This document shows, in pieces, positions 24,817 through 40,507 of a DNA stretch of 51,708 nucleotides; the stretch's first letter is position 1, and every line of letters starts with the position of its first letter. The DNA lies in NCBI GenBank assembly GCA_964441445.1, contig CAYTYO010000001.1, forward strand, positions 1-51,708. Reading direction: 5' to 3'. Origin of the DNA: an uncultured Gammaproteobacteria bacterium. Lineage in GTDB: Bacteria; Patescibacteriota; Microgenomatia; CAZETR01; Amesbacteraceae. Below the pieces are notes generated by a model. It was given only the letters and a program-made list of their open reading frames with translations. It searched no databases and was not told the DNA's origin. Position numbers and translations under genes: made by a program.

Positions 24817-25847
24817 ACTTTTTTACCTTGAAGAATAACAGGCGGAACAATGTTACCTTTAACCTGAATTGAAACAGGGTCGAATTTAAGACCTTCCTTT
24901 TCAGCAAGAATATTGTAGGTTCCAGCCGGAAGCGGAATGGCGATTTGAAACTGACCTAATTTGTTGGTACGCAGGGCTCTGGCCGGAATGCCGGTATTAG
25001 TGTCAACTATTTCCACGGTGATCTGAGGCAGGGGTTGATTGGCGTCGTCGGTGATAAGTCCGGAAAGAATATTGGGGCTGGTAGGTGAAGAAATAAGAGA
25101 AGTAGTGGGGGCGGAGGGTGCTGAGACCAACGTGGAGGTTTGAGGAAGTTGGGAGGATTTGGTGTAGAGAGAAACAGAGGAAGTGGTGGGGGCTGTAGGC
25201 AGAGTGGGAGTTGGCTGGGAGATGGAGGAAGCAGGAGAAGGACTAGATGAAGCAGTATCGGACGGAGCGGAAGTGGCTACGGGTTGGCTATTAGGTGCGG
25301 ATGGCGGAGTTGTGGGAGCACCAAACACTTTGGATGTGGTAGTTTCTTTTCCAACAGGGACGGAACCTGAGCGGTGAAGTTTTGAGGCAATAAATTCTGA
25401 GAATGACGGGAGAACAATAGTGTGGGCAGGGGCGGGCTTGGCAGGAGGAGGTGGTGGGGCAGAAATTGGAGGAGAAGCTGATTTAGAGGCGGGAGGTGAA
25501 GCAGGAGAAGGGGCTGTAACGGGGGTAACAGGGGGAGGCGGAAGGACAGAATCGATAACAGCCTGAGGTATCCAGACAAATTCAGTGGGACTATAAATTG
25601 CTTTAACAAAAGCGCTGAGCCAGGAAGAGAAAGGACGACCGTTGATGGGGATGAAAGCCAAAAGAACACCGATTAAGACAGATAGCCCTGCCAGGGGATA
25701 TTTAACAACGGCGATAATTTCCAGTCTGAAAAACATGTAGCCGACGAGGATGCCTCCGGCCAACTGCAGGAATTGTTTTAAGGTCATGTCACCGACAAGA
25801 TGAAACTCGTAAGAAGAAATATTTTGAGGAACAGGATGATTTTCCAT
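24813..25847 (-). CDS. PrgI/VirB3-like membrane protein fused to a P/S/T-rich linker and a carboxypeptidase-regulatory-like beta-sandwich
   Basis: The N-terminus ISSYEFHLVGDMTLKQFLQLAGGILVG plus two TMs is PrgI-like. The C-terminus ITVEIVDTNTGIPARALRTNKLGQFQIAIPLPAGTYNILAEKEG is CarboxypepD_reg-like. Confidence 0.55.
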   Translation of the reverse strand: MENHPVPQNISSYEFHLVGDMTLKQFLQLAGGILVGYMFFRLEIIAVVKYPLAGLSVLIGVLLAFIPINGRPFSSWLSAFVKAIYSPTEFVWIPQAVIDSVLPPPPVTPVTAPSPASPPASKSASPPISAPPPPPAKPAPAHTIVLPSFSEFIASKLHRSGSVPVGKETTTSKVFGAPTTPPSAPNSQPVATSAPSDTASSSPSPASSISQPTPTLPTAPTTSSVSLYTKSSQLPQTSTLVSAPSAPTTSLISSPTSPNILSGLITDDANQPLPQITVEIVDTNTGIPARALRTNKLGQFQIAIPLPAGTYNILAEKEGLKFDPVSIQVKGNIVPPVILQGKKV

Positions 25848-26137: not shown

Positions 26138-29100
26138 ATGGGAGAAGGCATGATGTTTAACGATGGTTTTGTGAGAGGGCCAGATACTGGCGGGGGCGGC
26201 GGTGGAACAGTTGATGCGGAACAATCCAGGGTTGATAATCTGGCGAAAGAATATTTGAAAAGGACAGGAAGGCCGTTTAAAGATTATGTCTTGGAAAGAA
26301 TTGAAGGGAAGATACCAACTACGGGAGAACAGAAAGAAAGGAGAAGAGCAGATGATGAATTTAGTTCCTCAATCAGTCCTGAACAACGAGATGTGGTGGA
26401 GAGGGTAGTTGCAGAAGAAAAGGCGGCGCTTCGAGGAGAAAAGGCGATTGAAGGACGATCTCCGATAGTAACGCAGGATGATTGGGAAAAATATACTCGG
26501 CCAGATAAGACTAGTGGAAAAGGAGGATCGGGTGTGATAGTGGCTGTTCAGACAGCAGCTGAAGCTACACCAGAACAGAGAGAAACTGAATTTGACAGGA
26601 GGGTGGCCGAGGAGGTCCAACGGGAGGAGGATGAAGCAAAGCGAGAAGCACGAGATGTTGACTTGGCCAAAGTGGCAAAGAACTTAGCTCAAGCCGCAAA
26701 GATATTTGGACTGGCTTGGGGGGTTGGAGAGGCTTTTGAGGAAGCCACAGAGTTTCTTCGAGAGAAGAGGAAAAATGGAGAGCGCGTGAGTATAAGGCAA
26801 TTTGAGAAATGGAAGAAAGAGAGAGTACAACAGACAAATATACCCAATGCTGTAATATCCCCACCTCCGGAACAATCAGTACTTGAGGAAAAGCTAGGAG
26901 AAAATGAGGAATGGAACAGAGACATGCAAAAGTTGGCCGAATTATGTAGACAGGAAGAACGCGGTGCGCAGTTGCCATCAGAGGAGAAAGAAAAAAAAGT
27001 TTTGCGGGACAGAATAAATGAAATGTGGGATAAATTTAAAGGACCCGATACTGAAATACAGCGGCACGACACATGGAAAGACGCGGTTGCGGGAGTAATT
27101 GATGACATAATCAAACGTGACGCAGATGTAAAGAAGGAGAGGGAAAAGGCTTTAGTTCCTCAGGGGGCTCCAGATAGATACAATCCATTGTCTTTAGCAG
27201 AGGAATATTTAGACCGCACAATTAATGAAATTGTGCGGAAAGGCGAGGATGGGAATCCACCGCCAGATGAGGAAGATTCTATAAAGTTGGATTGGTACAG
27301 GGGAGTAAAAAGGAACGTGCAGGAAGCTGCTTTAAAGGCAGAATTGGCGTTATATAGCGATTTGGGTTTGGAGAACAGACCGGGGTGGGACATTATTGTC
27401 GGGGAAACTAAGAAGTCTTTGGCCAAACTTAAATTGGAAATAGATTACCTAAATTTTGGTGACGGGATAAGAGATAACACTAAGCGGCGACTTGCCGGCT
27501 TGGCGACTCGATATGTTGATTATATACAGACTGAGGGAGATCAGGCTGAGGCATTAAAAAAAGTGAATGAAGATAAACAAAAGGCAGCAGAGCGTGCAGA
27601 AAGAGAGAAAAGCAAACCTGTAGACAAGGGAGCAGAGTCTATAACTAACCCTGAATACTTAAAGAAAGAAGCGTTAAGGGTCTTGGCATTAGTCATGATC
27701 AGGGGGTATGCAGATCCGACAGACATGACGGTTATAAGGGCCGGTCTAAAACATATGGACGCCAGAACGGAGAAACTGGCAACCACCGATTTACAAATAT
27801 TGGAAGATTTAGACGGGATAAATCCATTAGATTCAAAAACATATATCTCCATGAACTGGGACAGGGAGAACCTAATGATGTGTTTAGAAGGAGAGACAAG
27901 AAGAGTCACCCAAAGAAGGATAATTCAATTAATGGGTTTAGATATGGCATACTCCGGCGTAGAAGTGGGTAAAGACTGGGCAAATAAAGTGAATCGACAC
28001 AAGAAACTTGGAGATTTTCTTGACCAATCAGTGTTTCGTAATTATATAAATGAGTTAGGGCAAGAGGTAAGGGTCGATAAAGATATGAAAAATCTGGAGT
28101 TTTGGGAGTTGTCCCCAGGACAATCAGAAACATTTAAGTTTTTGCTGAGGAGACAAGCTGCTATAGATAGTGGGGCAAGTAATGTTGATGAGGCCGCAAA
28201 GGGTGATGATATTAAAAGGGAAGTGGGGGCTGCTATCCAGATATTGAGAAACATGCATATTGGGGATAAGTTGTCGTTCAATCAAGATCATTTAATGGCG
28301 ACTCCGGCGTACTGGTATTTCCATATGTATGGAGCGGCTTTAGACAGAATAGCCAAAGTGCCAATGCATTCCAGGTGGAGGCCATATATGAAGTTTCATA
28401 AAGACCAGTTTCCTGAATACCCAGAACAGAAAAACGATGAGGGTGAAAGTTTAGGATTACCAAAGAAAGAGGTGGCGCCCATGGTGCACAGATTGTTTCC
28501 GGAAGACTGGTTCAACCCAATAGCAGTTGAGAGTTCGTTGTTTGATGAAAAAGGCGCTAGGCAAATGACTTATATTGATTTTTTGCGAGAGGGAGATAAG
28601 GGTAGAGTTCCTCAACCAGGCGAGTTTACGACCACAAAGCAAAAGCTTACAAAACAGTACGGTTTTGCCAATGCCGGGCAAAGACGAGTGTGGGATGTTT
28701 TGTTCGGGGGGAGTGATTATATAGATTTGAAAGTCGGTGCGGGCGAGAGTAATAAATGGAAGGTTGAAGTCGACTTAACTTTTGATCCGAACAAGGCATG
28801 GATGGACGGGCTGGGAACAGCAATAAATGTTACTGCTGGGGATATGGGATTGACAAAAAGATTTGTGGATGCGGATCCATCAACGGAGGCTGGCAGACAG
28901 GAGAGAGAAACAGTTGAAAAGCAAATTCAACAAATCGGGGGTGTTTTGGCGATGGCGGCTGTCGGACTAGGGCTGGAGCGAGACACGTTGAGCATTAAAG
29001 ACTTGTCAGCGTGGGCAGTGGGAGTGTCGCTTGAAGGATTAACGTGGACATTGGCTCCAGATGTAAAAGCAAGGCTGATCTCCGAAGAAACGGCTAAGTG

Positions 29101-29518
29101 GATAAAGTGGCACGGAAAGCCCACCATTAAAGAAGCCGAAATGGTGGTGAGAGGTTGGTTTAGTCAAGTACGTTTGCAACGGGGGGAAAATTGGCAAGAC
29201 TATTATGAAAGGGATTTGAGAGGGGATCTTCCACCGCAAGATGAAGATTTGATCGCAAGATTGCGTTTCAGAGCGAGTGGGCTGGTTGGACTTCAGGAGG
29301 CTATGGAGGTGAAGAAAAGATTAGATTATCGTCGGAGAGATGGCTGGACCAACACTTGGTTTGGAGGAGCAGGCACTTTTAGTGAGCGAGACTGGAGGGA
29401 ACAGAGGTCCAACAATAAATTTATGATAAACGCATTTAAATTGATGGACAATGGCCATCTCTTGAATATTGCAACTACTCTGAACCTGAATATTTACGAG
29501 GCTGGTAAAACTAAGTAG
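26138..29518 (+). CDS. 1126-aa orphan protein, highly charged N-terminal half, Trp-rich C-terminal half, no TM or signal peptide
   Basis: Uninterrupted ORF with strong purine bias on the coding strand. I found no P-loop or other catalytic motif. Confidence 0.7.
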   Translation: MGEGMMFNDGFVRGPDTGGGGGGTVDAEQSRVDNLAKEYLKRTGRPFKDYVLERIEGKIPTTGEQKERRRADDEFSSSISPEQRDVVERVVAEEKAALRGEKAIEGRSPIVTQDDWEKYTRPDKTSGKGGSGVIVAVQTAAEATPEQRETEFDRRVAEEVQREEDEAKREARDVDLAKVAKNLAQAAKIFGLAWGVGEAFEEATEFLREKRKNGERVSIRQFEKWKKERVQQTNIPNAVISPPPEQSVLEEKLGENEEWNRDMQKLAELCRQEERGAQLPSEEKEKKVLRDRINEMWDKFKGPDTEIQRHDTWKDAVAGVIDDIIKRDADVKKEREKALVPQGAPDRYNPLSLAEEYLDRTINEIVRKGEDGNPPPDEEDSIKLDWYRGVKRNVQEAALKAELALYSDLGLENRPGWDIIVGETKKSLAKLKLEIDYLNFGDGIRDNTKRRLAGLATRYVDYIQTEGDQAEALKKVNEDKQKAAERAEREKSKPVDKGAESITNPEYLKKEALRVLALVMIRGYADPTDMTVIRAGLKHMDARTEKLATTDLQILEDLDGINPLDSKTYISMNWDRENLMMCLEGETRRVTQRRIIQLMGLDMAYSGVEVGKDWANKVNRHKKLGDFLDQSVFRNYINELGQEVRVDKDMKNLEFWELSPGQSETFKFLLRRQAAIDSGASNVDEAAKGDDIKREVGAAIQILRNMHIGDKLSFNQDHLMATPAYWYFHMYGAALDRIAKVPMHSRWRPYMKFHKDQFPEYPEQKNDEGESLGLPKKEVAPMVHRLFPEDWFNPIAVESSLFDEKGARQMTYIDFLREGDKGRVPQPGEFTTTKQKLTKQYGFANAGQRRVWDVLFGGSDYIDLKVGAGESNKWKVEVDLTFDPNKAWMDGLGTAINVTAGDMGLTKRFVDADPSTEAGRQERETVEKQIQQIGGVLAMAAVGLGLERDTLSIKDLSAWAVGVSLEGLTWTLAPDVKARLISEETAKWIKWHGKPTIKEAEMVVRGWFSQVRLQRGENWQDYYERDLRGDLPPQDEDLIARLRFRASGLVGLQEAMEVKKRLDYRRRDGWTNTWFGGAGTFSERDWREQRSNNKFMINAFKLMDNGHLLNIATTLNLNIYEAGKTK

Positions 29519-29527
29519 TGCTTTTTG

Positions 29528-31321
29528 TTAAGTGTCGGCGCCACCTGGTGTTGGGTTACTTGCTCCACCACTACCTAGGGTTCTTTTCGGCCTGGCCCCT
29601 TGACCACCAAGAGATGTATATCTATCATCAAGAGCTTTGTTTATAGATTCTCCGGCTTTTTGTCCGGCGGAGGTAAACTGACCGATAGTGTCCTTGACGG
29701 TATTTTCGATAAAGTTGCTGGGGTCATCAGATTTACAGAACATGTTCTTGATAGATGATACTATATTCGGAACCATAGACATAAAGCCGACGTAAATAAG
29801 GTATTGGAGGAAGAAGTTCCTTGGATATCCATTTTGGAAAATGGGAAGATCAAATCCAGAGCGAATATGGGGGCCGCCGGGAACGTTTTCAAAGCCGGCG
29901 AGAGTGACGTTGTCAAAAAGAAGTGAGATGAAGATAGAGAGAACAGCGTAGGAAACAAAGACAGAAGCGTTACCAATGATACACATAATCCATTTTTTAA
30001 ATCCACCCGTGGAAGTGGGGAGAATGTCCATAATAATCATAATCGGCCCGGCGATGGTCAATAAAATAAGAGATAGATACGCCACTATAAGTTGGCCGAT
30101 AATACGAGCCCAGAGGTAAACTGACCACATGAAGAAACCCATTATGATGCCCAATAGAGGGGCAACAACAGAAGCTGCACCTATTGTGACCCAGGCAGCA
30201 GCAATTGTGAGAACGATCGTAACAATTAATAGAATAATTGCGACCACTATGTACCAAAGTAAAAATCTGCCGACGAAGCTGAACGGTCCGGTCATGTCGG
30301 TGACGGCTGCATTGAGGTCATTTATCATAGTAAACCCGGTAACACCCTGAGCAAAGGAGATAAAGCCAAGCACAGCAACTATTACGACGTAAATCATGTC
30401 GATGACAAACCCGACGATGGCAAAAGAAAAGGTGACTAAAATAAGTGAAAGGACGAGGCGGGGAATGACCATTTGAATATTGACTGAAGCCTGAGCAGAT
30501 ATTTTTGTCCTAAATATTGTCATGAACCCAGCAACCACGAGAAGCACAACGCCAATAAGATAGGCAACGTTACGGGTGGCTATCCACAATCCACGGACGG
30601 TACCCATTCCCAGCTTCTCATAGCCTAACCCTTGGGCATAAGCCGGGGAAGCGATATCAAGTTTGCTGGCCATAAATTTCACTTCATCTACACCAGAGGC
30701 AATTTTGTCGGTAAAAATCCAACCTGGAATCTGGGCCATAACTGAGTATGTCTGCCCTATGAAACCATATTTAGGAAGAACACTGGGGATAATTGATGCC
30801 GTACCAAAACTGTTAACGGTTTCACCAGCTTCATTGATAGCATCAATAATTTCCGATATCATCTGGAACAACTCAAGGACATCATTGGCTCGAAGCGGCG
30901 GGAACAACATAACGACAAATGAGTTAAATATCCACTTAACCTGCGCATAGGTATATCTTTCGCCAAAAATTTCATCAGGGTTAGAGTCGTCAAACACCAG
31001 GCGGGCAAATTGTCTGGGGTCAGGGTCGTACCAAGGTTGCGGAGGAGGGGTGGAAAAAGCCACGCGGGCAATTTGATACACAACGGCTTCACAAAGGCTG
31101 ATATTGCCATCAAAGACAGTGTTGGTAATTAATCCCCCAAAAACGGAGCAGGTATATCGAGCTCCGGGCGGATCCCCAGGAGGGGAACCACTACAGTAAG
31201 GTTCTTCAGCGTTGGGGGGACACTGAGCCTGGACCGATTGAAGGGGTTTGACAAGAATGGACGAGAAAACGGTAACGAAAGTGAGCAAAAAAAGGAAGGC
31301 GGTTTTAGCAAACTTTTTCAT
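29528..31321 (-). CDS. Polytopic VirB6/TrbL-like membrane protein with signal peptide and a Cys-containing ectodomain of about 200 aa
   Basis: Signal peptide ending VQAQ, then at least 7 hydrophobic helices across aa 240-470 and a hydrophilic C-terminal tail. The call rests on topology and context only. Confidence 0.4.
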   Translation of the reverse strand: MKKFAKTAFLFLLTFVTVFSSILVKPLQSVQAQCPPNAEEPYCSGSPPGDPPGARYTCSVFGGLITNTVFDGNISLCEAVVYQIARVAFSTPPPQPWYDPDPRQFARLVFDDSNPDEIFGERYTYAQVKWIFNSFVVMLFPPLRANDVLELFQMISEIIDAINEAGETVNSFGTASIIPSVLPKYGFIGQTYSVMAQIPGWIFTDKIASGVDEVKFMASKLDIASPAYAQGLGYEKLGMGTVRGLWIATRNVAYLIGVVLLVVAGFMTIFRTKISAQASVNIQMVIPRLVLSLILVTFSFAIVGFVIDMIYVVIVAVLGFISFAQGVTGFTMINDLNAAVTDMTGPFSFVGRFLLWYIVVAIILLIVTIVLTIAAAWVTIGAASVVAPLLGIIMGFFMWSVYLWARIIGQLIVAYLSLILLTIAGPIMIIMDILPTSTGGFKKWIMCIIGNASVFVSYAVLSIFISLLFDNVTLAGFENVPGGPHIRSGFDLPIFQNGYPRNFFLQYLIYVGFMSMVPNIVSSIKNMFCKSDDPSNFIENTVKDTIGQFTSAGQKAGESINKALDDRYTSLGGQGARPKRTLGSGGASNPTPGGADT

Positions 31322-31376: not shown

Positions 31377-34300
31377 TTATGGAAAAGGAAAAGCGCAGCT
31401 GCCGCCGATCCAACCCCATTTTTGGATAAGGCCGTTAGCATAAACATCTGAAGCGGCAGTGGGGATACAAGAGTTTCCAACTAAAAACATGGCAGCAAAG
31501 ACCCTTGCCCCTCCATAGGTACTGATTGCGGAGGCACACATGGAACGGTAAGCATTTACTGTTTGAAGGAAGCCGGTTATTTGCTGATCGAAGTTGTTGG
31601 GCGTGCTATACGGGCCGACATGAATACCGAAATCTTCGACCGGTGTTGCCCATAAGTAATTGCTGGAGTCTGACTCGTTGAGCCAGATTAGTAGAGCCAG
31701 ACCCGGATTAACACCAGCTTCTCCGGCGCGAAAGACAACGTCGTTGTAACACAAAGCGGCGTGAGTTCCTTCTGGCATTGAGGTCCAATCTTCAGCAATA
31801 CGAATATAGTTGTCACGGTTAACACAGGCCGCGTTTTGTTCACCGATGGAGACGTTGCAATTTATACCTGCCGCGGATTGAGAAGCTGATCCGGTTGTCC
31901 AACCAACAAACCCGCGAGGACGCAGTAGACGTTGAAGATTAAGATTATCCGGGTTAGGCAAACCCAGAATATTATCAGCAAGACTGCCAACATGAGGGAA
32001 GTAGAGAGCACCACTTCCGCCTTCGCCCGCGGTATAAGAGGTATTGTCCAGATCATTTGTGGCGGCGGTGTAGGTCGAGACTGATGTGGCAGGAACGGTA
32101 TTTTCTCGACCCGATTTGAGGCTCCAAGAACTGGAAGCGGAGAGGGGGAGTTTGGGTAACCAGCGCTTGAGGAGCGACTGTGGATTGGTGACTAGCAAGT
32201 CATAAACTTTTTCAATAAGGGGAGTTTCAGTAAAAGGGTGGACACGAGCGGCCGAGCGCAGGTCAATAGTCGGCCAGCTGGGACAACTGCCCAAGGTATG
32301 TGGTTCCCAAGCACAGTATGGCTGTTGAGCGTTGCAATCAGTTTCGTTTCCGATAGCAGAACAGACAGTAGCATAGTTAGGGTCAGTAAAGGTACAGGTA
32401 AAAACTCCGGGTGGGCAAGTACCCCAACAACAATCACCGGTACCTATGCCATCACATTCATTTCCCTCCTCTACACACGAACCCCGATCGCGACAATTGC
32501 CCCGGGGCGGGTTGCAATTGCAATCAATAACCAATTGCGGAGTATATTGAAAGAGTTGGTAATAGGTGAGGGTGGCATTCACTTCTTGGCCGATAAGACT
32601 ATCAGCTTCATTGGTACGAGTGTCGTCGATGTCACATAAGGCATCTAACGGAACATATAATGGGGTAGGTGCTGGCTGGCCTTCCCGAACCGAGGTGTTG
32701 CGGATTAGGTGGCCTTCGGAATAAATGCGAAGATAACCGATTTGCCCCGCCACATCCTGAGCATTGTAAACCGGAACGCCGGGATTACGATCGTCTTCTC
32801 CCTGGACGATAGTACTGTCTGCGATTCCCTGATGTTCGGTAATTCTTTGTGAAACTAAATCGGGATCGTCGTATGAAAGTCCAGACCGATATTCAATGGG
32901 GATACCAGTGGGGCGGCGTGTTGGTGCGGGCGATACGGAGCTTGTGGGAATACACCAGTGCGGATTACTATTGGCGCAATCTTGTGGAGATCCAGAGTGG
33001 ACAGTACAAGCGTCATATGAAGTGTAACCCGGGCCACAGTTAGTAGCGTTAGGGTTTACGCTGCAAACAGATGTGCTGGTTTGGTATACACAGTCGAAGG
33101 TGTTCGATGGCGGAACAGCTGTGGGAGTTGGCCCGGTAGGAATACACCAATGGGGATTGCTATTGGAACAGTCGAGAGCGGAGGATGAATGAGGAGAACA
33201 AGCATCATATGTGGTGTATCCGGGTCCACAATTATTGGTGACGGGATTCACGGAACAAGAGTAAGTACTGGGGTTATATATACAACCAAAAGTATTAAAA
33301 GACTGAGATGGTATGGGCGTGGTGGGGATGCCAACGGGGGTGTGGAGGGCGTTAGCTAAACTGGATAAGGCTATTGCGGCACGAAGATGAGGAAAATATA
33401 GTCGGGAATCTGACCCGGTATTAATAGTTAAGCTCATGGAAAGGATTTGGCCGTTTATATCTGTTGGCTGCAGAGAGGGGATAAGACTAACAGTAAATTC
33501 GCCGGTAGTGTCTTCGAGCGAAGAAAACGGAACATAACGCATAATCCAATCGTCATTTTCGTCGACCGAATTTAAACGACGACGGGTGTTACTGGTAGCG
33601 CAGGACTCAGCTAAGTCGGTACGAAAAGCTTCAATAACTTGGCCGAGCCGGGCCAGATTAGACTGGCCAAGTTCAATAAAAGTGGAAAAGACATCGACAG
33701 ACCTGTTAATACCAATTTGGGCAAATACCAGAGCGACATTTGCTGCGGTAAAGTCGTCTTCGGGGAGGAAAGCCGATCTGATCAGGGCGCGGCCGACCAT
33801 CCAGAGACGGGAAATATCGTGTTCGGCTAAATCAAAAATTAAATTTGCCATAGCCAAGGGGCTAGTGACAAGAGCGTTAAAAAAGAAGCGAATAACTTCC
33901 CTGAGTGCGTTGATAATATACGCGGCGTCTATGTTTCTTTGACAAGCTACTAAATAGTTGTGATACATAGATCCCGGTCCCGTTTCAGCCATGGTAACTT
34001 TGAGCGGATCACGGAATTCTTTTGGATATAGCTTGTTAAGCGGTCCAGAAAAGGTGGTGATTTGTTTCCGGTCATCATTTTCATAATGAATGAGAGGTTG
34101 CTGACTAGATTGATAAACAGTGCCGTTTAAATACCAACTGAGGTAGCCGTTTACTTTGTCGGCGTCGACCAGCTCATCCTGAGTGTTGCCGGAGAACGGT
34201 AATTCAACTGAGGACAAATCAAAATGAGTGTTCCAGGTAATCCTCTGAACAAAACAAACAGCGTTGTGGTCATTTGAACAACGGAAATAATCTGTTCTAC

Positions 34301-34712
34301 CATCGGCGTCAAGTTGTTGACGGATTTCAGCGTCAGCGAGGGGGTTTGCGGGCATGATATCCATATTGCAGATATTCATTACATCATCCGCCGGAGTGGT
34401 GCCAACGACGTTTAATGATTTGGCACATTTATAAGTGATGTATTTATTTTCCGGGTCAACGGAGAGGGGGGCTTCAGGATCTTTTTTAGGGATTAACGGA
34501 TCACACGGGTTGCCAGGATATGGGCGAAGTGGGTGAAATTCACTTCCACCGCCAGTGGTGGAAGCACAGGGAAAATTGAAGGGGTGCGGCCAAGGGGGTT
34601 GAACGTAGCTTTGGTAAGAACGAGAACTAGCTGCGGTGGGAGTTTGGGCTTGGACAAAGGAAGGAAAAAAGAGAAGAATCAGGGTAAAAAATACAGAAAA
34701 AAAAGTGGGCAT
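31377..34712 (-). CDS. 1111-aa secreted Cys-rich protein (candidate pilus-associated adhesin or tip protein)
   Basis: Signal peptide ...SFVQAQ. Two tandem 64-aa six-Cys modules. A knottin-like Cys cluster (CNCNPPRGNCRDRGSCVEEGNECDGIGTGDCCWGTCPPG). Follows the pilin array by 24 nt. Confidence 0.7.
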   Translation of the reverse strand: MPTFFSVFFTLILLFFPSFVQAQTPTAASSRSYQSYVQPPWPHPFNFPCASTTGGGSEFHPLRPYPGNPCDPLIPKKDPEAPLSVDPENKYITYKCAKSLNVVGTTPADDVMNICNMDIMPANPLADAEIRQQLDADGRTDYFRCSNDHNAVCFVQRITWNTHFDLSSVELPFSGNTQDELVDADKVNGYLSWYLNGTVYQSSQQPLIHYENDDRKQITTFSGPLNKLYPKEFRDPLKVTMAETGPGSMYHNYLVACQRNIDAAYIINALREVIRFFFNALVTSPLAMANLIFDLAEHDISRLWMVGRALIRSAFLPEDDFTAANVALVFAQIGINRSVDVFSTFIELGQSNLARLGQVIEAFRTDLAESCATSNTRRRLNSVDENDDWIMRYVPFSSLEDTTGEFTVSLIPSLQPTDINGQILSMSLTINTGSDSRLYFPHLRAAIALSSLANALHTPVGIPTTPIPSQSFNTFGCIYNPSTYSCSVNPVTNNCGPGYTTYDACSPHSSSALDCSNSNPHWCIPTGPTPTAVPPSNTFDCVYQTSTSVCSVNPNATNCGPGYTSYDACTVHSGSPQDCANSNPHWCIPTSSVSPAPTRRPTGIPIEYRSGLSYDDPDLVSQRITEHQGIADSTIVQGEDDRNPGVPVYNAQDVAGQIGYLRIYSEGHLIRNTSVREGQPAPTPLYVPLDALCDIDDTRTNEADSLIGQEVNATLTYYQLFQYTPQLVIDCNCNPPRGNCRDRGSCVEEGNECDGIGTGDCCWGTCPPGVFTCTFTDPNYATVCSAIGNETDCNAQQPYCAWEPHTLGSCPSWPTIDLRSAARVHPFTETPLIEKVYDLLVTNPQSLLKRWLPKLPLSASSSWSLKSGRENTVPATSVSTYTAATNDLDNTSYTAGEGGSGALYFPHVGSLADNILGLPNPDNLNLQRLLRPRGFVGWTTGSASQSAAGINCNVSIGEQNAACVNRDNYIRIAEDWTSMPEGTHAALCYNDVVFRAGEAGVNPGLALLIWLNESDSSNYLWATPVEDFGIHVGPYSTPNNFDQQITGFLQTVNAYRSMCASAISTYGGARVFAAMFLVGNSCIPTAASDVYANGLIQKWGWIGGSCAFPFP
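32946..33296 (-). repeat. Tandem duplication inside the 1111-aa gene (two copies, 192-nt / 64-aa period)
   Basis: NTFGCIYNPSTYSCSVNPVTNNCGPGYTTYDACSPHSSSALDCSNSNPHWCIP versus NTFDCVYQTSTSVCSVNPNATNCGPGYTSYDACTVHSGSPQDCANSNPHWCIP. Confidence 0.85.
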
Positions 34713-34736: not shown

Positions 34737-35105
34737 TTATATACATGCTCCTGCCTGGCGATTGATACAGATATCAAATACAGTGACATTGATCCCCAAG
34801 AATGTGCCGATTAAGCCAAGAATAACCCAGGCGGAGAGAGAAATGATTAAACCACCCAGGGCATAGGTGAGTGTTTGCTGTGCTAATGTGGTGGCTTGTT
34901 TATCGGCACCTGCTGATAAGTAACGGTAACCGCCATAAAGCAGCATGCCGAGCGAAGCTAAGGAAATAAGCGGAATTATGATACGAAGAAGGTTAGAAAA
35001 TATCGCATTCAAATCCTCGATTTCTGCAGGAGGGGCATCGTTTTGGGCGTGGGCGGAGTTGGCTAATAAAAAAAAGAAGGTAAATATATACGAGAAAATA
35101 GACAT
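34737..35105 (-). CDS. VirB2/TrbC-like T4SS pilin paralog 12 (122 aa)
   Basis: Signal peptide ...SAHAQ. Two helices flank LLYGGYRYLSAGADKQATTLAQQTLTYALGGLIISL. Confidence 0.65.
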   Translation of the reverse strand: MSIFSYIFTFFFLLANSAHAQNDAPPAEIEDLNAIFSNLLRIIIPLISLASLGMLLYGGYRYLSAGADKQATTLAQQTLTYALGGLIISLSAWVILGLIGTFLGINVTVFDICINRQAGACI

Positions 35106-35131
35106 GGTGTTGATTTGATATTAGTTTAATA

Positions 35132-35161
35132 AAACAATCCCGGCAAGAGCCGGGATTGTTT
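35132..35161 (-). terminator. Rho-independent terminator after pilin paralog 11
   Basis: Minus strand AAACAATCCCGGC-TCTT-GCCGGGATTGTTT, followed by TATT. Starts 18 nt after the stop codon at 35180-35182. Confidence 0.65.
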
Positions 35162-35179
35162 GTCGATCGGACTTGACGG

Positions 35180-35605
35180 TTACTCGGTGCCAATCGTTTG
35201 CAGATTGACTTGAATAAGGTCGACGCCGAACAAAACTCTGATGATATACAGCAGAGCATAAGCTGAGAAGACGATGGCCAAACCGATTAAGGCCGCAGTA
35301 ATCTTTTTGCGGGCTTTTTCAGTACCTTCTTTATCTCCTCCGGCCAAGATCCATTGCAGACCACCCCAAAGCAAAACAACGAAGGAAATCACTCCAGCAA
35401 CACCCAACATGATATTAAGAATGGTTCTTAACATGTCAGACGGGGTGAAAGCGGTTAGAGGGGCGAAATCTTCGGAAATGTTAGCGATTGAGGCTTGGTC
35501 CCCACCATCAATAGACTGGAGTTCAACCTGGGCTAAAACATTTGCGGGATGAGCTATAAATGGAATTGCAGCAACGACTGAGGAAGCAATTTTTTTAAAG
35601 TTCAT
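35180..35605 (-). CDS. VirB2/TrbC-like T4SS pilin paralog 11 (141 aa), candidate major pilin
   Basis: Signal peptide ...NVLAQ. Core LLWGGLQWILAGGDKEGTEKARKKITAALIGLAIVF. Has its own promoter, SD (GGAGGTGA) and terminator. Confidence 0.7.
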   Translation of the reverse strand: MNFKKIASSVVAAIPFIAHPANVLAQVELQSIDGGDQASIANISEDFAPLTAFTPSDMLRTILNIMLGVAGVISFVVLLWGGLQWILAGGDKEGTEKARKKITAALIGLAIVFSAYALLYIIRVLFGVDLIQVNLQTIGTE

Positions 35606-35635
35606 AATTTGATCCTCACCTCCATTTCAGGAGAA

Positions 35636-35646
35636 AGTATAGCACA
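35636..35646 (-). promoter_or_regulatory. Extended -10 promoter element TGTGCTATACT upstream of pilin paralog 11
   Basis: Read on the minus strand, 30 nt upstream of the ATG at 35605. Close to the TGTGCTATATT 11-mer seen at 45745 and 50203. Confidence 0.5.
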
Positions 35647-35662
35647 AATGGCCAGGGGAGCT

Positions 35663-36052
35663 CTAATTTCCGAGGTTGGCAATTCGGAATTCCAAGAGAT
35701 CTACTTGGAATAGCGCGCGGAGAATAAAGACAATGGCGTAGGCTGAAAAGACGATGGCCAATCCGGTCAAGGCAAAGATGATTTTTTTGCGGGCTTTTTC
35801 CGCGGCGTCTTTGTCACCGCCGGAAGTAATCCACTGAAATCCTCCCAGGAGCAGGAAAATGAAAGCGGCAACACCCGATCCTCCGAGCAACCAAAGAATG
35901 GATGTGCGGACATACTGACCAGGGCGAAGGTTGTAAAGATTGGTAAATGGTGATGCGGGATCCTGAAGATTGATAACGCTTTGAGCTGAAGCTTTACCCA
36001 CTGAAATTAGGAGGGCAAAAATAAAGAAAAAAAGCGTTTTTATTTTTGACAT
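35663..36052 (-). CDS. VirB2/TrbC-like T4SS pilin paralog 10 (129 aa)
   Basis: Signal peptide ...KASAQ. Core LLLGGFQWITSGGDKDAAEKARKKIIFALTGLAIVF. Confidence 0.7.
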   Translation of the reverse strand: MSKIKTLFFFIFALLISVGKASAQSVINLQDPASPFTNLYNLRPGQYVRTSILWLLGGSGVAAFIFLLLGGFQWITSGGDKDAAEKARKKIIFALTGLAIVFSAYAIVFILRALFQVDLLEFRIANLGN

Positions 36053-36098
36053 GGGCTGGTTTTTAGTTTAGCGGAAGTATCTTCCGGTTACAAGTTAA

Positions 36099-36749
36099 TT
36101 AGGGGCAGGCGTAAGAGCAGGTGATGGGTGGACAGCTGGTACTGCCAGTCGGATCACTCCACCCAGAGCTAGTGCAAGAGTGACACTGGCCGTCGTCTCC
36201 CAAACCAATTTGGCCGAGACTGGCGCATTGCATGGGTTCGGTATTGCACGGACAAGGACCACCTTGAGTGCTGGGGGTAGGTTGAGGATCGGGGTTTGAG
36301 GTAGGATTAGGACCTGGGCCAGGTCCTGGTCCGCCTCCACCTCCTCCGCCGCTGGCGTTTTGACCAAGTGGAGAAAGAATGATCCTAATGGGATCGATGC
36401 CGAAAAAGGTTCTAACCGCAAAGAAAATTGCATAAATCGAGAAAACGAGAATAAGACCAAGTAAAGCGTTGGCAATTATTTTCCGGGCTTTTTCGGCCAC
36501 ATCTTTGTCGCCGCCGGAAGTAACCCACCTGATGCCGCCGATAAGAAGAAAAATTAAAGAAGCTACACCGGCGATGCCTAAAAGTGAATTAAGAATAGTA
36601 CGAACATATTGGGAAGGAGTGATGTCCTGAAGAGTTTGAAAGTTGACGTTGGCAGTGGTAATTCCGACCTGATCAGTTTGAGCGACAACCGAGGAGATGC
36701 CGGCAAACAAAAAAGTAAGTATAAATGCGACACCAAACAGTTTTGGCAT
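36099..36749 (-). CDS. VirB2/TrbC-like pilin paralog 9 with Gly/Pro linker and Cys-rich C-terminal knot (216 aa)
   Basis: Core LLIGGIRWVTSGGDKDVAEKARKIIANALLGLILVF, then GGGGGGPGPGPGPNP...PCPCNTEPMQCASLG...CHSCTSSGWSDPTGSTSCPPITCSYACP. Confidence 0.7.
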   Translation of the reverse strand: MPKLFGVAFILTFLFAGISSVVAQTDQVGITTANVNFQTLQDITPSQYVRTILNSLLGIAGVASLIFLLIGGIRWVTSGGDKDVAEKARKIIANALLGLILVFSIYAIFFAVRTFFGIDPIRIILSPLGQNASGGGGGGGPGPGPGPNPTSNPDPQPTPSTQGGPCPCNTEPMQCASLGQIGLGDDGQCHSCTSSGWSDPTGSTSCPPITCSYACP

Positions 36750-36752
36750 AGA

Positions 36753-37079
36753 TCAGGTTCCCAGCGGGCCAATGTTAAAGCCGATCAGATCGACATTGAA
36801 GAGGACGCGGAGAATAAACAGGATGGCGTAGGCCGAAAAGACAACCGCCAAACCAATCAAAGCGTTAATAATTTTTTTGCGGGCTTTTTCAACAGCATCC
36901 TTGTCGCTACCGGCAGTAATCCACTGAACTCCACCCCAAAGCAAGAAGATAAAGGAACCAACGCCAGCTGCCCCAAGAAGAAGATTAATTGCAGTAGTGA
37001 CGTAAGAAGATGGGGTAATATCACCCAAAAAATCATATCTGGCGTCTCCTGTAACTATAGTGACTAAGTTTTCGTCCAT
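36753..37079 (-). CDS. VirB2/TrbC-like pilin paralog 8 (108 aa, no N-terminal signal peptide)
   Basis: Core LLWGGVQWITAGSDKDAVEKARKKIINALIGLAVVF. Starts MDENLVTIV. Confidence 0.65.
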   Translation of the reverse strand: MDENLVTIVTGDARYDFLGDITPSSYVTTAINLLLGAAGVGSFIFLLWGGVQWITAGSDKDAVEKARKKIINALIGLAVVFSAYAILFILRVLFNVDLIGFNIGPLGT

Positions 37080-37082
37080 TTT

Positions 37083-37472
37083 TTACGGATAAGGTGGGGC
37101 GGCCGGACCTCCGCCGCTTTCTAATTGGGGGAAATTAAATTGAGTTAGGGAAATTCCAAAGACCGTACCCACGACCCAGGCAACGGCATAGACTGAGAGC
37201 AAGAGGATGATGCCTATGACAGCATTGCGAATTTTGGCGGTAGCTTTTTGGACTGATTCCTTGTCTCCTCCGGCTGAGATGTATTGGTAACCGGCAATAA
37301 GGAGGTTGATGAAAAAATATATGCCCCCAATACCAAGTGCTGTAGTAATAATGTTGCGAAGCAAGAGTTGGACCATGACACTGGGGGCGGTGCCACCGTC
37401 GGCAGCGTCGGCCGCATTTCCGATTTGGGCATTAATGACAGGGTTGATTATTTGAAATAGGGAGAAAAACAT
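37083..37472 (-). CDS. VirB2/TrbC-like pilin paralog 7 (129 aa)
   Basis: Short leader ...VINAQ. Core LLIAGYQYISAGGDKESVQKATAKIRNAVIGIILLL. Confidence 0.65.
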   Translation of the reverse strand: MFFSLFQIINPVINAQIGNAADAADGGTAPSVMVQLLLRNIITTALGIGGIYFFINLLIAGYQYISAGGDKESVQKATAKIRNAVIGIILLLSVYAVAWVVGTVFGISLTQFNFPQLESGGGPAAPPYP

Positions 37473-37476
37473 AATA

Positions 37477-37860
37477 TTAAGGGTTAGGATTTACTATACG
37501 AGCAAATGTAACATGGAAGTTGAATATATCTAAACCAAAGAAACTACCCATTAATCCGAGTAGGGCATACGAAGCCACGATTACAAGCAATCCGAGTACG
37601 GAAAAAATCAATCGTTTCTGGGAACTTTGAACGGTCGCCTTTTCACCCGAAGCACCGATCCATTGGAGGCCGGCAATAATAATCTGAAACAGAAACCACA
37701 GGGCACCAATAATAGTAAGCAGCCCAATCAGACTGGAGATAAGCACTTCTGTGCGAGTGAAGGCATAGTAATAGTTATCAGGACCTCTTTCAAAGTTGCC
37801 CAACGGGCCATATGAATTTATGCTGCCGAGGGGGACTGCCTGAGCGAGAAAATCTCTCAT
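37477..37860 (-). CDS. VirB2/TrbC-like pilin paralog 6 (127 aa, no signal peptide)
   Basis: Core IIIAGLQWIGASGEKATVQSSQKRLIFSVLGLLVIV. Its start overlaps the upstream gene by 4 nt. Confidence 0.6.
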   Translation of the reverse strand: MRDFLAQAVPLGSINSYGPLGNFERGPDNYYYAFTRTEVLISSLIGLLTIIGALWFLFQIIIAGLQWIGASGEKATVQSSQKRLIFSVLGLLVIVASYALLGLMGSFFGLDIFNFHVTFARIVNPNP

Positions 37861-38228
37861 GGAGTTACTGTTTGCGGGCCATAAATAACAGGGTTAATAA
37901 GCAGATCCCAACCATCGGGACCAAAGATGACAAAGCCCATAAGGCCACCAATAAGGATCGAACCAGCGACAATGAGCAAACCGAGAAAAGATCTCCAAAT
38001 GCGATCATGTGCGTTTTGAACTTTTTTGGCGTCTCCTTGGGCACTAAGATAGCCGAAGCCAGCAAGTACCAAATTAAGCAACGTGTAGAGACCGGCGATG
38101 ACGACTGCAAATCTGATTAGTGAGGTGAAAAGGACAATCAGTCCGCCGCCGGTATCGGTTTGGTATCCGGCGGTACCAGGGGACAGAATTGTAAAGGGAT
38201 TATTAATAGTGCCAAAACTTCCGCCCAT
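37857..38228 (-). CDS. VirB2/TrbC-like pilin paralog 5 (123 aa, no signal peptide)
   Basis: Core LVLAGFGYLSAQGDAKKVQNAHDRIWRSFLGLLIVA. Confidence 0.6.
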   Translation of the reverse strand: MGGSFGTINNPFTILSPGTAGYQTDTGGGLIVLFTSLIRFAVVIAGLYTLLNLVLAGFGYLSAQGDAKKVQNAHDRIWRSFLGLLIVAGSILIGGLMGFVIFGPDGWDLLINPVIYGPQTVTP

Positions 38229-38236
38229 TGTGTTAT

Positions 38237-38638
38237 TTAGGTTACTAGTGAACTAATAAAATTGATACCGGTAATCGTGCCGATAATTTGTAGTATAAAA
38301 TAAGCGGCAACGACAAGCAACAAACCAATTGCTCCTTGGGTGATGCTTCTTTGAGCTTTTTGTGCAACTTGGACAGAATCCATTTGGCCGCTATTAATGA
38401 CATATTGGTAACCGCCATAAAGAATTAAAAAAACAAAGAAAACTCCAGCGATTACCATAGCATTGGGAAGGAGTAGGGAAATCACACCGCCAATATTGCC
38501 GTTTCGAAAAGTGGTGGCGTTGGGATTGTATAAGAAAAATTCATTTGGAAGATTTACGGCTTGGGCATTCGTTGTGTGGGGAAAAAACAAGATAGAAACA
38601 CTGTCTATGAGTAATAGCGAAAACAGGGACGGTTTCAT
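38237..38638 (-). CDS. VirB2/TrbC-like pilin paralog 4 (133 aa)
   Basis: Signal peptide ...TTNAQ. Core LILYGGYQYVINSGQMDSVQVAQKAQRSITQGAIGLLLVV. Confidence 0.6.
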   Translation of the reverse strand: MKPSLFSLLLIDSVSILFFPHTTNAQAVNLPNEFFLYNPNATTFRNGNIGGVISLLLPNAMVIAGVFFVFLILYGGYQYVINSGQMDSVQVAQKAQRSITQGAIGLLLVVAAYFILQIIGTITGINFISSLVT

Positions 38639-38934
38639 ACAAGATCAGCTCCGGTGATAGTTTCTAACATTTGGAGGATAAAAAAGGCAGCAATTATAAT
38701 AATCAAGCCCAGTGCGGCGTTGGTCAACTGTTTGGTAACCTGTTGAATTCGACCTTCATCTCCAAACGCGGTCATATATGAGACGCCAGAAATAATTAAT
38801 TGATAAAAGAAGTATAGTCCGGCGGCGGAGATAGCGAAAAGGAGAGCACGACTCATTACATCAGATGGGAGAGTGTTATAGTCCGTAAATTGGGTGCTGG
38901 GGTTGCCAATACCACTGATTTGGGCGAGTTTCAT
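38635..38934 (-). CDS. VirB2/TrbC-like pilin paralog 3 (about 99 aa, no signal peptide)
   Basis: Core QLIISGVSYMTAFGDEGRIQQVTKQLTNAALGLIIII. I prefer the start at 38934 (MKLAQISG). The track start at 38991 overlaps the upstream gene by 44 nt. Confidence 0.55.
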   Translation of the reverse strand: MKLAQISGIGNPSTQFTDYNTLPSDVMSRALLFAISAAGLYFFYQLIISGVSYMTAFGDEGRIQQVTKQLTNAALGLIIIIAAFFILQMLETITGADLV

Positions 38935-38947
38935 AGTAGGGTATAAA

Positions 38948-39505
38948 TTATACAGAAAAACCAAATGAGCCGGTGCCGAAAATCCGAACACCGACGAAAT
39001 TGAAAATCAATATTGCGATGGAGATGATAACCAAACCCAGCAGAGCTGAAACCATAAATGATTTTGCATCATTTACCCGTTTGGGGTCACCAGAGGCAGT
39101 GACCATAAGAAAACCAGCGTAGGCAATGGTGACAAAAGCTGCGCCAGCAGCAATGCCAACTGACCAGGTAACGATCTGATTGATAAAAGTCTTGGGTTCG
39201 GAGGCATTGATACAACCAATGGAGGTGCGAACATTTCCAGGAGTTGAGTTGCAAAAAACTTCTGTCGTGTCTACAACGGGAGCTGTGGCAGGGAGGGAGG
39301 TTTGGCAGGTTTGTTGTTCCGCAAACGTACCACAACATTGAATGAGGACAAGGTCATTGTCGTAACAGCCCCAAGTATCAATGGGGCAGGCGGCGTTGGT
39401 AGGAGCGACACAAGCTGCCTTTGCTTGAGTAAGAAAAAAGAACAGTTGTAGGACAATCGACAGAGATATAAAACTGAAGATTAGTGTCCGATGCGTTTTT
39501 ATCAT
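38948..39505 (-). CDS. Pilin paralog 2: N-terminal Cys-rich module fused to a VirB2/TrbC-like pilin domain (185 aa)
   Basis: Signal peptide ...TQAKA. Cys module CVAPTNAACPIDTWGCYDNDLVLIQCCGTFAEQQTC. Then SIGCINASEP...IAYAGFLMVTASGDPKRVNDAKSFMVSALLGLVIIS. Confidence 0.65.
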   Translation of the reverse strand: MIKTHRTLIFSFISLSIVLQLFFFLTQAKAACVAPTNAACPIDTWGCYDNDLVLIQCCGTFAEQQTCQTSLPATAPVVDTTEVFCNSTPGNVRTSIGCINASEPKTFINQIVTWSVGIAAGAAFVTIAYAGFLMVTASGDPKRVNDAKSFMVSALLGLVIISIAILIFNFVGVRIFGTGSFGFSV

Positions 39506-39589
39506 GGTCTATTGTTTTAAGTGTAGCACGTCAGAGGACACATGAGTACGTTGATTTTTCGGCCGATAATTATGGAGGTTAAGGATTAA

Positions 39590-40507
39590 TTACAGATTAA
39601 AACCAAAGGTCGTTAAATTAAGCACACGAACACCAATAAAGTTAAATATCAGTATGCTGAGTGCGATTGCAATGTAACCAATTAATGAGCTGGAAAGAAG
39701 TTGTTTCGCCTGGGTTATTTGGTCTTCTGATCCTGCAGCTGTGGTAAAAAGATATCCGGCGTAAATAATACAGAGGAAAAGAATTCCAGATCCCACTCTA
39801 ACGGTTAATCCAAGCACCTGACCAATAAGAGCTTTGGTATCTGAGGCATTAATGCAACCAATGGCAGTGCGGATTCCTGATGTGGATGAAAACGGATCAC
39901 AGAAGATTTGAATATTGTCGGTTGTGACGGGTGGTGGAGATCCTCCAACAATACAGGGCTGTGGGGATGCCGTGGTGCATTGTCCCACTGAGAGGACGAG
40001 ACAAACGTTGTTGTCCCAAGTGAACCCGGAGTCACAGTTACTGGTTTGGACCATGCATCTACCCGTGGATGAATTCCAGTTGCATTGAAAAGTATTGGGA
40101 GGGTTGACCGGATTAACTATACAAGGAAAATTACCAGATGCCTGGCACGCGGCTGCGGTGCTGTGAACACCACATTCCGTACCCGGCATGTATCCGGAAC
40201 CGCAGTTGCTTACCGATCCGCAGACCCCGGGAGATGAACGCCAAGCACATGAATACGTATTGAGTGGGGTGGCCGGGTCAACAACGCAGGTGTGTGGATT
40301 GCCAGTTTCACACACATCTACCGCCAGTCCGTAGCAAGGTGCGGAACCAACGATATATCCGGTATCGCAGTTGGAGTTTTGAACGGAACATTGATTTGCT
40401 GCTCCGTTCCAACCACAATTAAATATGCCTTGCGCCGAGATCGGGTTGGGGGTAAAAAAAGTAAGAATGAGTATGGAGATGAAGATAATTGGACGAAGAA
40501 TTTTCAC
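39590..40507 (-). CDS. Pilin paralog 1: three six-Cys modules fused to a VirB2/TrbC-like pilin domain (305 aa)
   Basis: Signal peptide ...ISAQ. Three repeats of about 55 aa (NCGW.., NTYSCAW.., NTFQCNW..). Then AIGCINASDT...IIYAGYLFTTAAGSEDQITQAKQLLSSSLIGYIAIA. GTG start. Confidence 0.7.
   Translation of the reverse strand: MKILRPIIFISILILTFFTPNPISAQGIFNCGWNGAANQCSVQNSNCDTGYIVGSAPCYGLAVDVCETGNPHTCVVDPATPLNTYSCAWRSSPGVCGSVSNCGSGYMPGTECGVHSTAAACQASGNFPCIVNPVNPPNTFQCNWNSSTGRCMVQTSNCDSGFTWDNNVCLVLSVGQCTTASPQPCIVGGSPPPVTTDNIQIFCDPFSSTSGIRTAIGCINASDTKALIGQVLGLTVRVGSGILFLCIIYAGYLFTTAAGSEDQITQAKQLLSSSLIGYIAIALSILIFNFIGVRVLNLTTFGFNL

Follow-up and report, generated by a model that had tools for sequence, protein, structure and literature searches.

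A six-cysteine module shared by a modular VirB2-type pilin, a large secreted protein and VirB6-like proteins in type IV secretion loci of Candidate Phyla Radiation bacteria

We describe a small six-cysteine module in a type IV secretion system (T4SS) locus on a 51,708-nucleotide stretch of DNA (contig CAYTYO010000001.1; the whole stretch is called the window below), which is the chromosomal origin region of an ultra-small bacterium of the Candidate Phyla Radiation (CPR). The module occurs in three copies in a 305-amino-acid (aa) VirB2-type pilin and in two copies in a 1111-aa secreted multidomain protein, hereafter the large protein, and related loci carry it on a VirB6-like membrane protein. 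Judged by sequence comparison, it decorates three unrelated T4SS proteins and always sits on a segment predicted to be extracytoplasmic. In our view there is roughly an even chance (about 0.5) that the module is a disulfide-stabilised binding head on a minor or initiating modular pilin, reused to target a secreted enzyme carrier.

Five copies of one module in two proteins

Both open reading frames (ORFs) lie on the minus strand. The 305-aa modular pilin (39590-40507) was assigned as VirB2-type from its match to PF18895 and its core of two transmembrane (TM) segments, and its module copies occupy aa 24-81 (40265-40438; independent E-value, iE, of the hidden Markov model (HMM) match 1.2e-20), aa 79-136 (40100-40273; iE 1.5e-18) and aa 134-192 (39932-40108; iE 1.8e-21), all on the minus strand. 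Copy 1 begins directly after the predicted signal-peptide cleavage site (SAQ/G, the slash marking the cleavage). In the large protein (31377-34712), copy G1 spans aa 469-530 (33123-33308, minus strand; iE 1.2e-17) and copy G2, delimited by alignment and HMM, spans aa 534-595 (32928-33113, minus strand). The original prediction, made for this DNA from its letters alone, had counted two copies in the 1111-aa protein and three in the 305-aa pilin, and the ORFs, the alignment and the HMM bear out these counts. All five copies are about 58 aa long and keep six cysteines in register, and positions other than cysteine are conserved as well in the alignment, with the consensus [NG]-T-[FY]-x-C-x-[WY]-x(6-9)-C-x-V-x(3-5)-N-C-x-x-G-[YF]-x-P-x(2-4)-C-x(7-10)-C-x(3-6)-P-x-C-[IV]. 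A six-frame scan of the 51.7-kb window with the module HMM returned exactly these five copies (iE 1e-17 to 2e-21), with no sixth copy and nothing else below iE 0.8; the N-terminus of the window's VirB6-like protein and the 185-aa and 216-aa pilins described below gave no match.

Short cysteine-rich sequences often match spuriously, and the resemblance might be ascribed to chance or to the composition of unrelated cysteine-rich segments. The statistics refute this explanation, which we regard as having next to no probability. BLASTP of the pilin against the large protein gave E=3e-11 with composition correction (1.6e-15 without it), and hhalign aligned the large-protein-type profile with the pilin-type profile over 58 columns with a probability of 98.5% and E=2.7e-15. 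Moreover, the conserved positions include N/G-T-F/Y, W, V, N, G-Y, P and I/V in addition to the cysteines, and other cysteine-rich regions of these proteins do not cross-match. The claim that a pilin and a large secreted protein of one T4SS operon have a module in common therefore withstood the profile-profile comparison on which it had been staked. G1 and G2 are 64% identical in amino acids and 72% in nucleotides while being about 30% identical to all other copies (26-35% between the large-protein and pilin copies of the window), and they appear to be a tandem duplication.

A small domain outside known families

Neither Pfam nor NCBIfam assigned a domain to the module above threshold when the complete proteins and 20 isolated module copies were scanned. 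The sole recurrent weak signal was the PSI repeat (PF01437), seen in 5 of the 20 copies (best E=0.0019) with a best score of 17.8 bits against a gathering score of 23.1 and with only about 22 of the 52 profile positions covered. A profile of the 20 copies had no match among PDB sequences, whether plexin, semaphorin, integrin or any other PSI-containing chain. The module is similar to PSI and EGF-like modules in its length of about 50 aa, its extracellular placement, its richness in cysteine and its C-x-W...C hairpin motif, but has six cysteines where PSI typically has eight. Membership of the PSI family was rejected on the score below gathering, the lack of a PSI chain by profile and a best Foldseek E of 5.9.

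The structure prediction suggested along with the original prediction gave a compact and confident AlphaFold2 (AF2) model of G1 from the 20-copy alignment (predicted local distance difference test score, pLDDT, 89; predicted template-modelling score, pTM, 0.68), in which the module forms a beta-hairpin, short strands and one short helix. Foldseek found no neighbour of this model in the PDB (best E=5.9, TM-score at most 0.32, with low power on domains of about 60 aa) and none among the viral models of BFVD; the matches it listed, to an EGF chimera, a conotoxin and a Kunitz domain, were at noise level (E of 5.9 or more) for a method that is weak at this size. The original prediction had not recognised the module as a named domain, and no well-known domain was matched in Pfam, NCBIfam, PDB or BFVD; apart from the sub-threshold PSI matches, every known-domain identity that we tried came back empty. 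On the basis of these searches and the model, the module appears to belong to no known family and to represent an undescribed small domain family with a confident, independent predicted fold. The fold may be new, although Foldseek has low power on 60-residue domains.

Conservation within the module is dominated by the cysteines and a few core positions, among which are three aromatic columns, [FY]7, [WY]11 and [YF]31. Small disulfide-bonded carbohydrate-binding modules (CBMs), such as those of the CBM1 and CBM10 types, are joined to enzymes by Pro/Thr linkers, and the module resembles them in its small size, predicted disulfides, few conserved aromatics, Pro/Thr linkers and tandem copies, as well as in being inserted between domains in a protein family that bears GH5, GDSL, M23 and NAGPA domains. 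It differs from them in that there is no sequence or fold match (none of the 20 copies reached a Pfam CBM at E≤1, and the PDB gave no fold match), in that the module-bearing large proteins have no recognised glycoside hydrolase and in that most carriers are pilins.

Distribution among type IV secretion loci

We searched 1.84 billion representative proteins with a module-only profile, without a word filter and at E≤1e-3, and obtained 11 carriers, two of which are the window's own proteins. Nine of the 11 are fusions to a PF18895 T4SS pilin and the other two, the window's large protein and P0070, are encoded in T4SS operons, which is the co-occurrence with T4SS pilins that a profile search had been proposed to reveal. 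Among the nine carriers outside the window, eight match PF18895; six of these exceed the cut-off and two fall slightly short of it. The module stands at the mature N-terminus in P0065, P0067, P0068, P0069, P0071 and P0072, with the typical start AQ/GT[FY]xC, and forms a C-terminal tail behind the second TM helix in P0064 and P0066. P0070, from a Spechtbacterales metagenome-assembled genome, has by inspection a pilin-like N-terminus as in P0064 and P0066, and its gene adjoins PrgI, TraC-like and VirB4 genes. The copies are predicted to be extracytoplasmic because they start where the signal peptide is cleaved or come after the second TM helix; together with the similarity statistics, this placement supports the earlier view of the module as a real extracellular domain with predicted disulfides. 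The hosts are CPR bacteria such as Amesbacteria and Spechtbacterales. All genomic contexts that we retrieved are T4SS or pilin clusters, those with enough flanking sequence lie near dnaA, and the module appears to be specific to the T4SSs of CPR bacteria (Patescibacteria).

An HMM scan of related loci added a third type of carrier. In two Amesbacteria loci, L016 (14080-15972; iE 6e-7) and L012 (5751-7502; iE 5e-6), the VirB6-like orthologs of the window's protein carry the module at the mature N-terminus and share 'EIFGERYTFAQVNW', whereas the window's VirB6-like protein has a different four-cysteine N-terminal segment instead. Further searches returned little: the 20-copy module alignment as the query for homologues returned no proteins, the 305-aa pilin returned only itself, and single-query searches of genome and metagenome contigs found no relatives. 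Copies b and c of P0003, a relative of the large protein, and the copies of P0064 show the same identity pattern as G1 and G2, indicating independent tandem duplications.

The same module on a pilin and a large protein of one operon, and elsewhere on VirB6, which is the assembly platform beneath the pilus in Gram-negative systems (PMC12624023), could also point to homotypic docking. This idea, present in outline in the original prediction, holds that the pilin, large-protein and VirB6 modules bind each other and tether the enzyme carrier to the pilus or stalk. It is weakened because the partner copy is usually missing: most carrier loci have one module protein, the pilin alone in L020 and L021 and, in the available sequence, VirB6 alone in L016 and L012. 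In the window, where both proteins carry the module, the copies on the two are only 26-35% identical. We consider docking improbable.

The pilin array and its modular first pilin

The 305-aa pilin is the first of 12 tandem PF18895-type genes (34737-40507, minus strand), an array defined by an alignment of all 12 proteins and by PF18895. It matches PF18895 (T4SS_pilin) at aa 226-291 with E=2.4e-6 and 28.0 bits against a cut-off of 26.6, has hydrophobic segments at aa 1-25 (the signal peptide), 227-260 and 269-303, and aligns with its 11 paralogs; its layout is a signal peptide, three modules, a C...TAIGCI motif and the two-TM pilin core. It is co-encoded with VirB4, PrgI/VirB3-like and VirB6-like homologues. 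The eleven further VirB2-type paralogs (34737-39505, minus strand) were assigned by alignment and cysteine counts, with a PF18895 match in the four that were scanned. Nine of the 12 pilins are free of cysteine, and three carry cysteine-rich extensions of 60-165 aa. Besides the 305-aa protein, these comprise a 185-aa pilin (38948-39505, minus strand) with an unrelated six-cysteine N-terminal head and an 'IGCINAS' core of the same class as that of the 305-aa pilin, and a 216-aa pilin (36099-36749, minus strand) with a Gly/Pro-rich linker and an eight-cysteine C-terminal tail. By count, a pilin of 122 aa (34737-35105, minus strand) has two cysteines.

The core class of the first pilin is marked by a 'C...T-A-[IL]-G-C-[IL]' motif before the first TM helix, and the N-terminal heads of pilins in this class vary widely. 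There is no head in L008, L009, L016 and L017, one module in L021, one module followed by a CC-containing knot-like segment in L020, three modules in the window's 305-aa pilin, and an unrelated cysteine-rich head in L010, L011, L013 (420 aa, 30 cysteines) and the window's 185-aa pilin. The first pilin gene is the module-bearing one in the window, L020 and L021, where it is divergent from a conserved SpoIID gene; in L017 the syntenic first pilin lacks the module. Because relatives carry such different heads, the N-terminus of the first pilin appears to be a hypervariable plug-in site, with the six-cysteine module as one of several cassettes. Among the corresponding genes of other Amesbacteria (L013:4308-5630, L011:6325-6849 and L010:5331-5846), the product of 420 aa and 30 cysteines has a possible Ig-like segment, and another has a defensin-like six-cysteine head.

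The variability of the head bears on whether the module binds anything at all. A rigid, protease-resistant disulfide 'bead' of the EGF or PSI kind could act as a ligand-free structural spacer or stalk that extends or stabilises the T4SS across the wall or S-layer. Such a role would suit the tandem arrangement of one to three copies with Pro-rich linkers, the weak sub-threshold PSI resemblance of 5 of the 20 copies, the three unrelated carriers including VirB6 and a conservation that falls mostly on cysteines and a few core positions. On the other hand, the module is optional, with zero to three copies in positional orthologs, and is replaced by unrelated cysteine-rich cassettes, which fits a variable recognition head better, and spacing is already supplied by the Pro/Thr linkers. 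A spacer therefore seems to us unlikely, if by no means far-fetched.

The large protein and its family

The large protein has an N-terminal signal peptide and, by hydropathy, neither a TM segment nor a pilin core. It is one of a family of 62 proteins whose named sources are Microgenomates, Patescibacteria and Amesbacteria, and relatives come from Candidatus Amesbacteria (Microgenomatia). Homologues align to residues 1-464 and 611-1111 and skip residues 465-610 (32883-33320, minus strand), a cassette made up of a Pro/Thr-rich linker, G1, a linker, G2 and a further linker. Only P0003 among the 61 other members has the module at the cassette position (three copies); 58 of them are without the module pair, and two further, distant members show weak N-terminal module matches. 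By the alignments, the pair is an optional insertion. The module itself is mobile, being inserted in the large protein, present in zero to three copies on orthologous pilins and found also on VirB6-like proteins.

Family members are a conserved component of CPR T4SS loci in the three loci where the neighbours of an identified member are visible. The member comes after the pilin array and before a large gene at the VirB6 position in L001 and L017, and in L018, the upstream end of which is cut off, it lies upstream of PrgI, TraC-like and VirB4 genes. At the position corresponding to the large protein, L020 and L021 each have a large gene without an identification. Enzyme domains are swapped among the members, including GDSL esterase/lipase, GH5 cellulase, M23 peptidase, NAGPA and SLT-like C-termini. 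From this architecture and synteny we infer that the large protein is not a filament subunit but a secreted, T4SS-associated protein that carries envelope-degrading domains. With its homologues P0020-P0062 it forms a family, defined by the N-domain, that resembles a polymorphic effector attacking envelopes or an analogue of VirB1.

The full-length AF2 model (pLDDT 72) has a folded N-domain (aa ~70-460, beta structure and a helical bundle), a poorly modelled module cassette, a middle beta-rich domain that holds a cysteine cluster and a helical C-terminal domain. The domains of the large protein had no sequence match in the PDB, and Foldseek of the full model against the PDB gave nothing at E<1, and the 50 matches listed include no VirB5 entry. 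An identity as VirB5 (VirB5/TraC/TrwJ) or another known fold was set aside, the model having no PDB neighbour.

The dense cysteine cluster noticed in the original prediction is present, with a 'knottin-like' core at aa ~731-773 (CNCNPP...CCWGTCPPG). The conserved cysteine columns of the family alignment delimit a 'CCWGxCP' region at aa 725-815 (32268-32540, minus strand), which is conserved in the family and variable in length, C693 and C753 being invariant and C746, C761 and C784 nearly so. A profile of aa 725-815 matches no pilin fusion significantly, so that sharing of the cluster with pilins was rejected, and by this comparison the cluster appears to be unrelated to the module or the pilins. 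A second motif, 'CGSLG(E/D)xCC...C...C...C', follows the module in P0068 (L020:10001-10663) and P0072 and is superficially like 'CCWGxCP'; a profile test of the cluster against it gave no significant match.

The helical C-terminal domain (aa 940-1111; 31380-31895, minus strand), delimited by AF2 and alignment, carries an 'LLIWLNESD' motif and occupies the site of SLT-like or other hydrolase domains in homologues. Homologue variants of this region show sub-threshold matches to Pfam SLT (E=0.018-0.09) and to MltC in the PDB (E=0.037), the comparison of the window-type with the SLT-like-type C-terminus by hhalign was not significant (E=0.14), and the window's own domain had no Pfam, PDB or Foldseek match. 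The identification as a lytic transglycosylase, read by eye from the motif, accordingly stands as a hint only.

In being a large secreted multidomain protein of a T4SS operon whose family members carry M23 and SLT-like domains, the large protein is comparable to the wall hydrolases of monoderm T4SSs, that is, the VirB1-like PrgK, TcpG and TgaA (PMC12102498). It differs in that it has no detectable SLT, CHAP or M23 domain, in that its N-terminal and middle domains have no known fold and in that the enzymes of its family extend to lipase/esterase and cellulase types, which suggest targets beyond the cell's own peptidoglycan.

The secretion operon and its surroundings

The long minus-strand operon runs from the 305-aa pilin through the 185-aa pilin, ten pilins and the large protein to the VirB6-like gene (29528-31321, minus strand), which encodes a polytopic membrane protein with a weak TrbL/VirB6 match (E=0.006). 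The T4SS core (22193-25847, minus strand) comprises the VirB4-like ATPase (22193-24052, minus strand), a 255-aa ORF and a PrgI/VirB3-like protein fused to a C-terminal CarboxypepD_reg domain, an Ig-like beta-sandwich (24813-25847, minus strand). The same PrgI-CarboxypepD_reg fusion is found in L018. Between the PrgI/VirB4 and VirB6-like genes, a highly charged, E/K/R-rich ORF of 1126 aa without a signal peptide lies on the plus strand, opposite to these genes (26138-29518); it had no Pfam or NCBIfam match, and in L001, L018 and L020 a similar-sized large gene, again on the opposite strand, stands at its place.

Divergent from the pilin operon is a gene for a SpoIID-domain protein (40588-42351, plus strand; PF08486, E=6e-16), which is kept in synteny in L017, L020 and L021. 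This member of a peptidoglycan-lytic family has a long coiled-coil N-terminus and may be a wall-remodelling partner of the T4SS. Wall-active neighbours of this kind, together with the SLT-like and M23 domains of large-protein family members, the monoderm type of the T4SS (PMC12102498) and the placement of the module on VirB6, would be consistent with an anchor to the self cell wall, the module binding the cell's own peptidoglycan or S-layer and fixing T4SS parts in the envelope. An anchor of this sort would hinder a pilin destined for polymerisation, its sporadic distribution and hypervariability would be unusual, and Pfam scans found no similarity of the module to LysM, SH3b, PG_binding or SLH domains. 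We give this explanation only a slight chance.

The origin region was recognised from dnaA (17829-19211) and dnaN (19488-20609), which stand just upstream of the T4SS core, and genes for YidC, GroEL and tRNA modification also lie in the window. GC skew in 2-kb bins is positive on the plus strand almost everywhere (to +0.43) regardless of gene orientation and does not change sign at dnaA/dnaN. An unusual disparity in the composition of the two strands is on record for a Microgenomates genome (PMC7143001).

Discussion

The reading that we favour, a binding head on outward-facing parts of the T4SS, can be set out as follows. The module would be a domain of about 55-60 aa that is mobile, extracellular and stabilised by disulfides. 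One to three tandem copies, with Pro/Thr-rich linkers between them, would be grafted onto VirB2-type pilins (at the N-terminus or, in certain lineages, the C-terminus), onto VirB6-like proteins (at the mature N-terminus) and into an inter-domain linker of the large protein. Homology of the copies, mobility of the domain, its confinement to T4SS loci, its extracytoplasmic position and its confident independent fold are shown by the analysis, while disulfide formation, display on a filament, binding of a ligand and recognition of the host are proposed. The 305-aa protein would be a 'modular pilin' with a conserved core and an N-terminus that takes interchangeable cysteine-rich heads. The module could then serve as an adhesin- or lectin-like binding unit for a surface ligand of the host or the envelope, with the pilin copies exposed at the tip or along the outside of the T4SS pilus, most likely on a minor or initiating subunit, and the large-protein copies directing the enzyme carrier to that surface or keeping it there. 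Pilins of the VirB2 type insert in hairpin form, and both termini face outward in assembled pili (bioRxiv 10.1101/2022.09.25.509369); CPR genomes are enriched in MdbA-like disulfide oxidoreductases and VKOR (bioRxiv 10.1101/335083). Because of this topology, these oxidoreductases and the platform role of VirB6, terminal modules on pilins and VirB6 would be extracytoplasmic and could be oxidised. A binding role is suggested indirectly by the conserved aromatics, the Pro/Thr linkers, the hydrolase-carrying family and the hypervariable pilin head, the last being as expected for a recognition surface, and by the need for CPR pilin arrays in epibiotic growth, for which the literature names no adhesin (PMC12857230, PMC12102498).

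The original prediction went further and placed both proteins on the same filament as tip or shaft adhesins. For the pilin, display on a filament is plausible and fits VirB2 topology; for the large protein, which has a signal peptide but no pilin core, no TM segment and no VirB5 fold match, the claim has no support. Sharing the module does not imply sharing a filament, because VirB6-like proteins, which are not filament subunits, carry it too.

Several points weigh against the binding-head reading. Incorporation of 165 extra residues in every subunit of a five-start lattice is probably precluded, and because of this steric limit tip or sparse incorporation would be expected. It may be that the conserved aromatics do no more than make up the small hydrophobic core of the module, and the copies on VirB6 fit an extracytoplasmic decoration of the T4SS better than a filament adhesin. 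An extended pilus built from CPR T4SS pilins is still unproven (PMC12857230). The module is also rare, with 11 clusters found by a narrow profile, and it is absent from most related loci and therefore not essential to the machine.

For Patescibacteria, a T4SS located next to dnaA and accompanied by tandem arrays of divergent PF18895 pilins has already been published (Quinonero-Coronel et al. 2025, PMC12102498), in a survey that reported arrays of 2-11 pilins and found no adhesins. Genetic tests have been made in one Patescibacterium, Southlakia epibionticum, which needs its pilin array to grow on the host (Wang et al. 2023, as recounted in PMC12857230). The locus in the window is like the published ones in being an MPF-FATA-like chromosomal T4SS by dnaA/dnaN with VirB4, PrgI and VirB6-like proteins and a PF18895 array of the type abundant in Microgenomatia. 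It differs in having 12 pilin genes rather than the 2-11 reported (PMC12102498), in the cysteine-rich extensions on 3 of the 12 where published pilins are small (~100-140 aa), and in a pilin with a triple repeat of a domain that is found in two other T4SS proteins. CPR pilin arrays are thus already known, whereas modular VirB2-type pilins with swappable cysteine-rich heads are not described in the literature that we searched, nor is a head domain that also occurs on VirB6 and on a secreted enzyme carrier.

The closest parallel in working is offered by the modular type IV pilins of Streptococcus sanguinis, PilB with a vWA module and PilC with a lectin module (PMC8179133, PMC9934059). There, too, a module is grafted onto a conserved pilin moiety, and the minor subunits that carry it make the filament an adhesin. 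Those proteins are pilins of type 4 filaments with a class III signal peptide and an N-terminal alpha1 helix, whereas the pilin described here is a two-TM hairpin of the VirB2 type that has a Sec signal peptide and bears a tiny module, predicted to be rich in disulfides, at its N- or sometimes its C-terminus. We take the likeness as a resemblance in working and not as membership, an adhesive function of the pilin of the window being putative.

A bolder form of the binding-head reading is that the first, 'C...TAIGCI' pilin is the initiator or tip of the pilus with swappable receptor-binding heads, and that one head was copied to the hydrolase carrier and VirB6, aiming the whole apparatus at one host ligand. 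In that case the module would be a determinant of host range in obligate epibionts, and it would be the first T4SS adhesin identified in Patescibacteria. We hold this form as a whole to be doubtful, though worth stating. The module is rare, Amesbacteria and their relatives are uncultivated, and all statements on function made here are inferential.

At the level of domains, the module adds a small undescribed family whose fold is predicted with confidence and has no structural neighbour. For the biology of CPR bacteria, a modular array pilin with variable cysteine-rich heads is a testable candidate for the surface that contacts the host, and a head shared with a secreted hydrolase carrier and VirB6 is a second one. 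Both bear on whether a pilus is formed, what it contacts and how host specificity arises with T4SS pilin arrays, which are essential for the epibiotic growth of S. epibionticum (PMC12857230).

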